In this document: positions 3,821 to 5,475 of the stretch, in pieces
Position numbering within the stretch: the first letter of the stretch is position 1
Layout: each line of letters opens with the position of its first letter
Made by a program: the position numbers and the translations under genes
IMG/VR virus record: IMGVR_UViG_2778261347_000002
Location: 1 to 6,219 of that record
Source of the DNA: a virus
Lineage: Duplodnaviria > Heunggongvirae > Uroviricota > Caudoviricetes
DNA length: 6,219 nt
Direction: 5' to 3' (one strand)
The notes under the pieces: generated by a model
The model's database searches: none
Seen by the model: only the letters and a program-made list of their open reading frames with translations
Told to the model about the DNA's origin: nothing

Positions 3821-4021
3821 ATGCAACACGAACTACAACCTGATTCACTGGTTGATTTGAAATTCATCATGGCTGATACTGGCTTTGGTAAAACCTTCAT
3901 CTACGACCGGATTAAGTCCGGCGACCTGCCTAAAGCCAAAGTTATCCACGGTCGAGCAAGATGGTTATATCGTGACCATTGTGAATTCAAAAATAAGCTC
4001 TTAAGCCGCGCTAATGGGTAA
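3821..4021 (+). CDS. torI: TorI/AlpA-family prophage excisionase (recombination directionality factor), 66 aa
   Basis: Sequence MQHELQPDSLVDLKFIMADTGFGKTFIYDRIKSGDLPKAKVIHGRARWLYRDHCEFKNKLL matches the AlpA/Vis-type HTH pattern and, from memory, the 66-aa KplE1 TorI. GGAG at 3808-3811. Sits immediately upstream of the att core and the integrase. Confidence 0.75.
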   Translation: MQHELQPDSLVDLKFIMADTGFGKTFIYDRIKSGDLPKAKVIHGRARWLYRDHCEFKNKLLSRANG

Positions 4022-4094
4022 AATAGCGGGTAAAATATTTCTCACATCTAAAAAATACCATTCTAATCAATCCCCTGCCACTCTAAGTAGATGT

Positions 4095-4110
4095 CTGCAG
4101 GGGACACCAT
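4095..4110 (+). other. attachment-site core: CTGCAGGGGACACCA(T), identical to the 3' terminal 15 nt of tRNA-Arg(CCU)
   Basis: Exact match to the acceptor 3' strand plus discriminator and CCA of argW as I recall it, with a degenerate T-loop (tAGATgt) just upstream. Lies between the excisionase and the integrase, as expected for a tRNA-targeting tyrosine integrase. Confidence 0.55.
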
Positions 4111-4234
4111 GCACACCTCTCCTGAAATCTACCATACCCCACAAAAAGCCTTTATAATCAGCATATACCCTTACTTATGTTACTCAAATAGTCGCCTTAA
4201 TTCTCCTCAGGGGAACGTAAATCAAGTCACATTT

Positions 4235-4282
4235 GGGGGCCTATTTAGGGGCACATCTTGGTCAATCTATTGCGAGGCCCCC
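4235..4282 (+). repeat. perfect 8-bp inverted repeat GGGGGCCT ... AGGCCCCC (32-nt spacer) overlapping the integrase RBS
   Basis: Arms at 4235-4242 and 4275-4282. The 3' arm contains the GAGG Shine-Dalgarno (4274-4277) 7 nt before the integrase ATG 4285. Confidence 0.5.
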
Positions 4283-4284
4283 AG

Positions 4285-5475
4285 ATGCCACTGACAGCTC
4301 GACAAGTTGAAACAGCCAAACCCAAAGATAAAATTTATAAGATTGCCGATGGTGGTGGGCTCTACCTTCAGGTCAATCCTAACGGCTCAAAGTACTGGCG
4401 AATGAAGTACCACTATGCGGGGAAGGAAAAGAAACTATCATTTGGCACCTATCCAACTATTACATTGGCTGAAGCTCGCAAACGTCGGGATGAAGCCAAG
4501 AAAATACATGCCGATGGTAAAGATCCCGGTGAAGTCAAGAAAGCTGAAAATCTTGAGAAAAACCTTTCCGAAGGAAGAACTTTTGCCGCAATCGCCACCG
4601 AGTGGTACAACGCAAAAGTTTCAGGCTGGTCTGCCAGCTACGCTGATTATGTCGACAGAGCATTCAAAAATAATGTGTTTCCCTACATTGGAAACAGACC
4701 CATTAGTGAAATCGAACCTCTTGAACTTCTCGCAGTTCTTCAGCGTATCGAAAGCCGAGGAGCCTGCGAGCTAGCTAATAAAGTTCGCCAACGATGTGGT
4801 GAAGTGTTTCGGTATGCCATTGTTACAGGTCGGGCACGATACAATCCAGCTTCTGATCTGGTTATAGCAATGAAAAGCTATAAGCGAACACATTACCCTT
4901 TCCTGCTTCCTCCTGAACTACCAGAGTTTTTATACAAACTCGAAAACTAAACCGGCAGTATTGTAACCCGTGAAGCTACAAAATTGTTGATGCTCACAGG
5001 GCTGAGAACAGTAGAATTACGTATGGGGGAATGGTGTGAGATCGATTTTACCCAAAAGATATGGGAAGTTCCTCCGACCCGGATGAAAATGAGGAAGGAG
5101 CATATCGTCCCTCTGTCAGATCAGGCAATCCAGTCTCTGCAAATCCTCAAAGAACTGACTGGAAGATACAGATACATCTTTGCCGGAAGAAATGATGTTA
5201 ACAGGCCTATCAGCGATGCAAGCGTCAATATGGTTTTGAAGAAGATTGGCTATGACAAAAAAGCTACCGGGCATGGATTTCGTCATACAATGAGTACTGT
5301 TCTACACGAGCAAGGATTCAATAGTGCATGGATTGAAATGCAACTTGCACATACGGACAAAAACAGCATTCGTGGTACATACAACCATGCTCGTTACCTT
5401 GAAGGAAGACGAGAAATGATGCAATGGTACGCTGACTACCTTGATGCTCTTCGAAAAGAGTCACCAGCTATATAA
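4285..5475 (+). pseudogene. P4/IntS-family tyrosine integrase interrupted by one in-frame TAA (4948-4950)
   Basis: Track ORFs 4258..4950 and 4984..5475 are in the same frame, separated only by TAA at 4948-4950. N-terminal arm-binding domain (MPLTARQVETAKPKDKIYKIADGGGLYLQV...) and C-terminal catalytic region with the typical HGFRHT and GTYNHARYLEGRREMMQWYADYL motifs. ATG 4285 is preferred over the track's TTG 4258. Confidence 0.75.

Follow-up and report, generated by a model that had tools for sequence, protein, structure and literature searches.

The torI-core-integrase junction of an O26:H11-type Escherichia coli chromosome: the attR of a P22-like prophage fused to the attL of an argW island

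The IntS-TorI module and the occupation of argW

The IntS-TorI module of the Escherichia coli K-12 prophage KplE1 (CPS-53) is common to HK620, Sf6 and CUS-3 (Panis et al. 2010, PMC2951348; Panis et al. 2012, PMC3509656). TorI plays in this module the role of recombination directionality factor, or RDF (PMC2951348, PMC3509656), and excision by IntS, TorI and IHF has been shown both in vitro and in vivo with KplE1 and HK620 substrates (PMC2951348, PMC3509656). The module is laid out as attL-intS ... torI-attR, with an intS promoter that overlaps attL, and transcription of the integrase gene is uncoupled from that of the RDF gene, unlike what is observed in lambda (PMC2951348). The duplicated core of KplE1 has been published as the 16-nt sequence CTGCAGGGGACACCAT (PMC2951348). 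As in lambda, the module combines a tyrosine integrase with a small winged-helix RDF, and both genes read in the same direction. However, xis and int are adjacent in lambda, with attP beyond int and both genes at one end of the prophage, whereas in the KplE1/HK620 type attP is located between the RDF and the integrase genes, so that integration separates them (PMC2951348).

The locus reported here is very close to KplE1. The core CTGCAGGGGACACCAT is identical, TorI is identical to the E. coli K-12 protein (PDB 1Z4H) at 66/66 residues, torI is found at attR, and intS is found at attL beside argW, from which it is transcribed away. Up to and including the core, the attR of our sequence and that of K-12 KplE1 are identical at 323 of 336 positions, and they are unrelated beyond. 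Unlike in KplE1, which is a 10-kb remnant, the module serves here a full-length P22-like prophage of roughly 40.7 kb. The DNA to the right of attR is also different, as it carries the integrase of another element and not the dsdC flank of K-12 (23% identity).

It is known that different integrative elements can form tandem arrays at a single tRNA gene, and the argW-dsdCXA region was reportedly described by Moritz and Welch in 2006 as a variable hot spot. In such arrays, the elements are separated by copies of the tRNA 3' end, and beside the tRNA-proximal copy each of them carries a P4/IntS-type integrase of its own. Both traits are found in the present locus, where the copies are three in number. 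There is no difference in kind from these arrays; the only special trait is that the RDF gene of the upstream element stands beside the integrase gene of the downstream one, which mimics an attP. The IntS-TorI module and the tandem occupancy of a tRNA site are thus both already known, as is the layout, and public O26 genomes already annotate torI and the integrase pseudogene as such. The genome paper of the O26 strain 11368 is said to catalogue the prophages and integrative elements of the strain. Our literature search for the O26 argW junction found no description of it and gave only papers in which argW is listed as a site for Stx phages.

The window and the right end of the prophage

The window, i.e. 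the whole stretch of 6,219 nucleotides that was analyzed, is collinear with E. coli O26:H11 chromosomes. Its bases 1-6197 show one mismatch with strain 11368 (NC_013361.1, about 3,300,759-3,306,955), and several O26 genomes are 100% identical to it over 3500-5700. The agreement with all E. coli genomes compared is lost over bases 6198-6219; these match at 20 of 22 positions the sequence CTGTCTCTTATACACATCTGAC, which we take to be the Nextera transposase adapter. This tail indicates that the window is probably a short-read contig in which the adapter was left untrimmed. A tRNA scan of the window returned fragments only and no tRNA gene, and the argW sequence was therefore taken from related genomes. 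All statements on the flanks rest on reference genomes with 99.98-100% identity to the window, and the distal attL of the source strain is deduced from them. The composition profile of the window displays no GC step at the core and only an AT-rich tract after the integrase; composition thus does not mark the boundary described below.

The features of the left part of the window, up to the core, are the following. The HK620 annotation was mapped through the gap-free match between window 3716-4110 and HK620 1762-1368.

1-3763, + strand: early-left ('ea') accessory genes of a P22-like (Lederbergvirus-type) prophage, from ORFs, Pfam and phage matches
729-1430, + strand: ORF of 233 aa with a full Ead_Ea22 domain (Pfam), the Ead/Ea22-like protein being placed at 762-1430
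2238-2825, + strand: DUF551 protein (Pfam)
3753-3782, + strand: hairpin and T-run resembling an intrinsic terminator, between the last ea ORF (3596-3763) and torI
3776-3814, + strand: homologue of the cII-activated 'phage integration' promoter annotated in HK620 (HK620 1664-1702)
3821-4021, + strand: torI, recombination directionality factor (excisionase) of the KplE1/HK620/Sf6 module, 66 aa (RefSeq annotation)
4014-4157, + strand: ORF of 47 aa spanning the core, its first part homologous to HK620 hkaB and Sf6 gene 17
4016-4035, + strand: two direct GGGTAAAA repeats with a 12-base spacing; the one beginning at 4016 precedes the core by 79 bases and the one beginning at 4028 by 67
4095-4110, + strand: 16-bp crossover core CTGCAGGGGACACCAT, the last 15 bases of argW plus T

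The ea genes all read toward the right end of the prophage and are collinear with the annotation of the O26:H11 11368 prophage. In that genome, RefSeq reports pseudogenes in the ea region (segment L001, 16518-17739, about window 17-1238), namely two partial genes, one of which is Ead/Ea22-like, and a DUF2737 gene whose frame contains an internal stop. Given the full Ead_Ea22 domain of the window ORF, these calls may be over-strict.

The torI gene is part of this P22-like prophage, and its end is separated from the core by 73 bases, which places it immediately inside attR. The stretch matching the GGGTAAAA repeats is annotated in HK620 as an attP repeat (repeat_region, segment L004, 2800-2822), and further copies of GGGTAAAA are observed over the intS promoter at attL. 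We thus propose that these repeats are candidate arm-type protein-binding sites of the attR arm of the prophage. As for the 47-aa ORF, it runs across the core, so that its C-terminal half is changed by recombination and differs between attP and attR; it is probably not a real gene. A promoter scan of 3550-4350 gave sites no more numerous than in shuffled sequences, the sole match being inside the integrase coding region.

A second piece of argW is found upstream of torI. The 16-base block TTGCAGGTTCGATTCC at 3786-3801 corresponds to argW bases 46-61, which immediately precede the core in the tRNA, and about 1.7e-4 matches of this type are expected by chance. It is located 293 bp upstream of the core, inside the region annotated in HK620 as a cII-dependent integration promoter, and is conserved upstream of torI in K-12 KplE1, HK620, Sf6 and CUS-3. 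This T-arm piece of argW lies there as if torI had been inserted into a 30-base segment homologous to argW. In the CUS-3 record (CP000711.1; segments L009, 1-31, and L006, 1708-1723), TTGCAGGTTCGATTCC is annotated as the attL/attR core. We considered the block at 3786-3801 as a second, CUS-3-specific att core and rejected this candidate, as the block is a conserved one upstream of torI that is also present in K-12. The first bases of the CUS-3 record are argW 46-75, to which the IntS-side arm is joined, and the record stops short of torI. Such a start indicates that the crossover core of CUS-3 is probably CTGCAGGGGACACCAT as well. The boundaries of the record appear to be shifted by about 310 bp from the real crossover, with torI and the real attR omitted.

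Two argW elements on either side of one core

On the + strand of the window, torI, the 16-bp core and the integrase frame (4285-5475) are contiguous, and the range 3821-5475 extends exactly from the ATG of the excisionase gene to the stop of the integrase frame. The initial annotation had described the three as adjacent, and they are indeed all present in the order that it gave. Its assignment of the core to argW was also right: the first 15 bases of CTGCAGGGGACACCAT are the last 15 bases of argW, and the core is identical to the 3' end of the O26 argW gene (segment L003, 14190). Even when 2 mismatches were tolerated, none of 200 shuffled versions of the window gave such a match, and the chance expectation for an exact argW 15-mer in the window is about 7e-4. 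The equivalent core fragment of K-12 is annotated as the pseudogene pawZ.

The features to the right of the core are given below, together with one that lies outside the window in the O26 11368 genome.

4111-4284, + strand: island-side arm, found immediately after argW in strains that lack the prophage (99.4% identical to AMSCJX02)
4285-5475, + strand: integrase pseudogene of an argW genomic island, P4/IntS-like tyrosine recombinase (RefSeq 'internal stop')
5476-6197, no strand: AT-rich (28-36% GC) non-coding island DNA, collinear with island-bearing chromosomes
6198-6219, no strand: non-genomic tail
NC_013361.1, about 3,331,543-3,331,560 (segment L008, 5544-5561): core copy 3, TTCCTGCAGGGGACACCA, flanked by a YeeU-type antitoxin gene on one side and by the csc sucrose genes on the other

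The gene order of O26 11368 places this junction in its context. From the left, yfdC is followed by argW, which carries core copy 1, by an intact intS and by acyltransferase and tailspike genes. The P22-like ejection, head, portal and terminase genes come next, followed by the lysis, nin, replication and immunity genes, then by Erf/Abc and the ea genes, torI, core copy 2 and the integrase pseudogene. The island continues with genes for a PapB-like regulator, IS elements (IS3), an HsdR-N protein, Ag43, antirestriction and YeeU, and to the right of core copy 3 are found the csc genes, a dsdX fragment and dsdA. The csc sucrose genes replace dsdC and most of dsdX in this strain. Core copy 2, which is that of the window, is located 40,664 bp after copy 1; copy 3, which comprises 18 bases of argW, is located 26,692 bp after copy 2 and closes the island. 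The prophage is thus about 40.7 kb long and the island 26.7 kb. The intS gene encodes 385 aa, starts 161 bases after argW in a normal attL, and its product is 98.4% identical to HK620 Int.

The initial annotation had reasoned that an excisionase and its cognate integrase should be separated by the integrated prophage. This logic is sound, and it is what O26 displays, with intS at attL and torI at attR. The second core copy and the intact argW that it proposed to look for are both present in the O26 reference genome, in addition to a third copy. It had also named, as evidence against its own reading, flanks with a normal attL and attR and a different core: a normal attL is found 40.7 kb upstream and the window core is the matching attR, the core being the same and not a different one.

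To compare the arms, we anchored on the core the window, the O26 argW junction, the attP of HK620 and Sf6, and AMSCJX02, a genome without the prophage. The left arm of the window is 95.6% identical to the left arm of the HK620 attP and 95.2% to that of Sf6, and its right arm is the island-side arm that follows argW in AMSCJX02. In the attL of O26, the left arm is 100% argW and the right arm matches the int-side arm of attP, with an identity of 96.5% for HK620 and 97.6% for Sf6. All other pairings of arms are at the background level of 25-35% identity, including the right arm of the window with the int-side arm of the HK620/Sf6 attP (35%, ungapped). These identities are those of an attP x attB exchange giving attL and attR, and they identify the window core as an attR. 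In agreement with this, the matches of 3500-5700 in the phage collection (Kapi1, HK620, Sf6, N7 and others) all stop at 4110, the last base of the core, and no phage record matches the DNA beyond, on the integrase side.

The integrase to the right of the core has a frame of 396 codons whose sole interruption is the TAA at 4948-4950, in line with the nonsense codon reported by the initial annotation. The three expected domains are recognized by Pfam, i.e. Arm-DNA-bind_3 (1.7e-28), Phage_int_M (2.2e-33) and Phage_integrase (1.6e-23), and the TAA leaves a protein of 221 residues that ends before the catalytic domain. The intact allele, in AMSCJX02, has TAC (Tyr222), with a C instead of the A of window 4950; this is the sole difference in the coding region, and the protein is otherwise identical. 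The same internal stop is found in O103 RM8385 (segment L007, 3186-4376), where the integrase stands directly beside argW and there is no prophage. The lesion therefore belongs to the history of the island and not to that of the prophage. The O103 RM8385 sequence is reported as 100.0% identical to window 4100-6197, and its argW-island junction is effectively an unoccupied attB for the O26 prophage. In AMSCJX02, O103 RM8385 and the other prophage-free genomes sampled, argW is directly followed by the island integrase in the same orientation. In total, 240 genomes have the island side and 66 have the junction of torI, core and island integrase.

The 720-bp tract after the integrase, 5476-6197, contains no ORF of 40 aa or more. 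A terminator-like hairpin, ccTCCACatatagtGGAGGcttttttt, at about 6146-6172, ends this tract.

The pairing of the excisionase with this integrase as parts of one element, as assumed by the initial annotation, does not hold. The island integrase is only 48% identical to the prophage IntS or to HK620 Int, and the arm on its side is unrelated to attP. The two elements may also differ in their binding sites. GGGGCC/GGGGCA repeats are found at 4236, 4248 and 4276 (- strand; stretch 4236-4281), just upstream of the start of the island integrase, and two GGGGCC copies with a 12-base spacing precede core copy 3 by 81 and 69 bases (segment L008, 5465-5482). These repeats, present in both arms of the island, agree with GGGTAAAA in the prophage arms in their 12-base spacing and in their distance to the core. 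We read the GGGGCC/GGGGCA and GGGTAAAA repeats as candidate arm-type sites, each recognised by one of two related integrases that would differ in specificity, and by analogy with intS the stretch 4111-4284 could have a promoter or arm-site role.

Order of integration and mobility of the two elements

The junction of torI, core and integrase is the attR of the prophage fused to the attL of the island, the core at 4095-4110 being both at once, and it is neither circular nor of the attP type. The window as a whole very probably covers the boundary of two different mobile elements that were integrated successively into the 3' end of argW, on a chromosome of the O26:H11 type. In the free phage, the order is torI, attP, intS, and integration brings intS to attL beside argW and torI to attR. 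To the right of the core, the integrase is the first gene of an argW island that shares this core and is presumably the older of the two elements. Insertion of the phage between argW and this island would then produce a hybrid site, made of the phage arm, the core and the island arm, that mimics an attP.

One would wonder whether the window could nevertheless be a true attP: a circular phage that had been excised, or a plasmid-like form, would naturally have torI, the core and the cognate integrase side by side. HK620 and Sf6 do carry a TorI homologue (hkaC and gene 18, respectively), the 16-bp attP core and int, in the same order and orientation, so that a true attP of the KplE1/HK620/Sf6 type does look as the initial annotation described; moreover, the window is a short contig whose own flanks are unseen. 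This explanation is nonetheless extremely unlikely, given that neither the right arm (35%, ungapped) nor the integrase protein (48%) resembles the int side of attP, that none of the 50,697 phage records has an integrase more than 49% identical to that of the island, and that the 2.1 kb to the right of the core are collinear with the chromosomal island DNA that follows argW in 240 genomes. A junction between two tandem copies of the same prophage, with the attR of copy 1 joined to the attL of copy 2, would also give xis, core and int in the order of a head-to-tail dimer. We consider its probability as practically negligible: the integrase is not the IntS of the prophage, the downstream genes of O26 11368 (PapB-like regulator, IS3, HsdR-N, Ag43, YeeU) are not phage genes, and strains free of the prophage carry the same integrase directly beside argW. 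Among the forms that the initial annotation had put forward, a tandem arrangement was thus the closest, provided that it is one of two different argW elements; the circle, the plasmid-like form and the two copies of one prophage are discarded.

If the window is the boundary of two argW elements, the order of the two integrations has to be considered. The arrival of the island first and of the prophage second would be the most economical history, in view of the distribution of the elements and of the nonsense allele that the island shares with O103: a dead integrase could not have integrated later, and the island would thus precede the prophage. In the reverse history, the island would have been integrated second, into the core copy at the attR of a resident prophage. 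The same core is used by both elements, and an incoming island could in principle target copy 2. We find this very unlikely, as the island stands directly beside argW in the sampled prophage-free genomes and as O103 RM8385 has the identical island with the identical TAA and no prophage, the dead integrase being unable to integrate afterwards. In addition, a full attB would normally include the tRNA sequence to the left of the core, which is absent at copy 2. Alternatively, the phage could have been lost from O103.

On the basis of the sequences, the prophage would still be competent for excision, through recombination of core copies 1 and 2 by IntS and TorI; with an intact IntS, a TorI identical to that of K-12 and identical cores, nothing that we observed prevents it. 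The island, on the other hand, would be immobile on its own. The proposal of the initial annotation that the element is not mobilised at present is therefore applicable to the island, with its broken integrase, and not to the prophage, with its intact IntS and TorI.

Another hypothesis concerns an interplay between the two elements, to which we attribute a very low probability. IntS and TorI could mobilise the island in trans, either by excising prophage and island as a 67-kb unit (copies 1 x 3) or by excising the island alone (copies 2 x 3). The 221-aa fragment of the island integrase, which would retain arm and core binding, might also bind beside the attR of the prophage and modulate its excision. 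The difference between the candidate arm repeats (GGGTAAAA versus GGGGCC) and the identity of only 48% between the two integrases speak against cross-recognition, and cross-mobilisation would be unlikely if these repeats are indeed arm-type sites of different specificity. If true, the action of IntS and TorI in trans would be a phage-dependent mobilisation of an otherwise immobile island.

These data do not change the existing knowledge of site-specific recombination. They bear on the way in which such loci are read: where several elements share one tRNA target, the adjacency of an excisionase gene, a core and an integrase gene is no proof of an attP or of a circle, and xis-like and int-like neighbours at a shared tRNA core need not be partners. 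The pairing of torI with the neighbouring pseudogene would wrongly label the P22-like prophage as defective for excision, whereas its own intS is intact 40 kb away, and the dead integrase of the island is uninformative on the mobility of the prophage.
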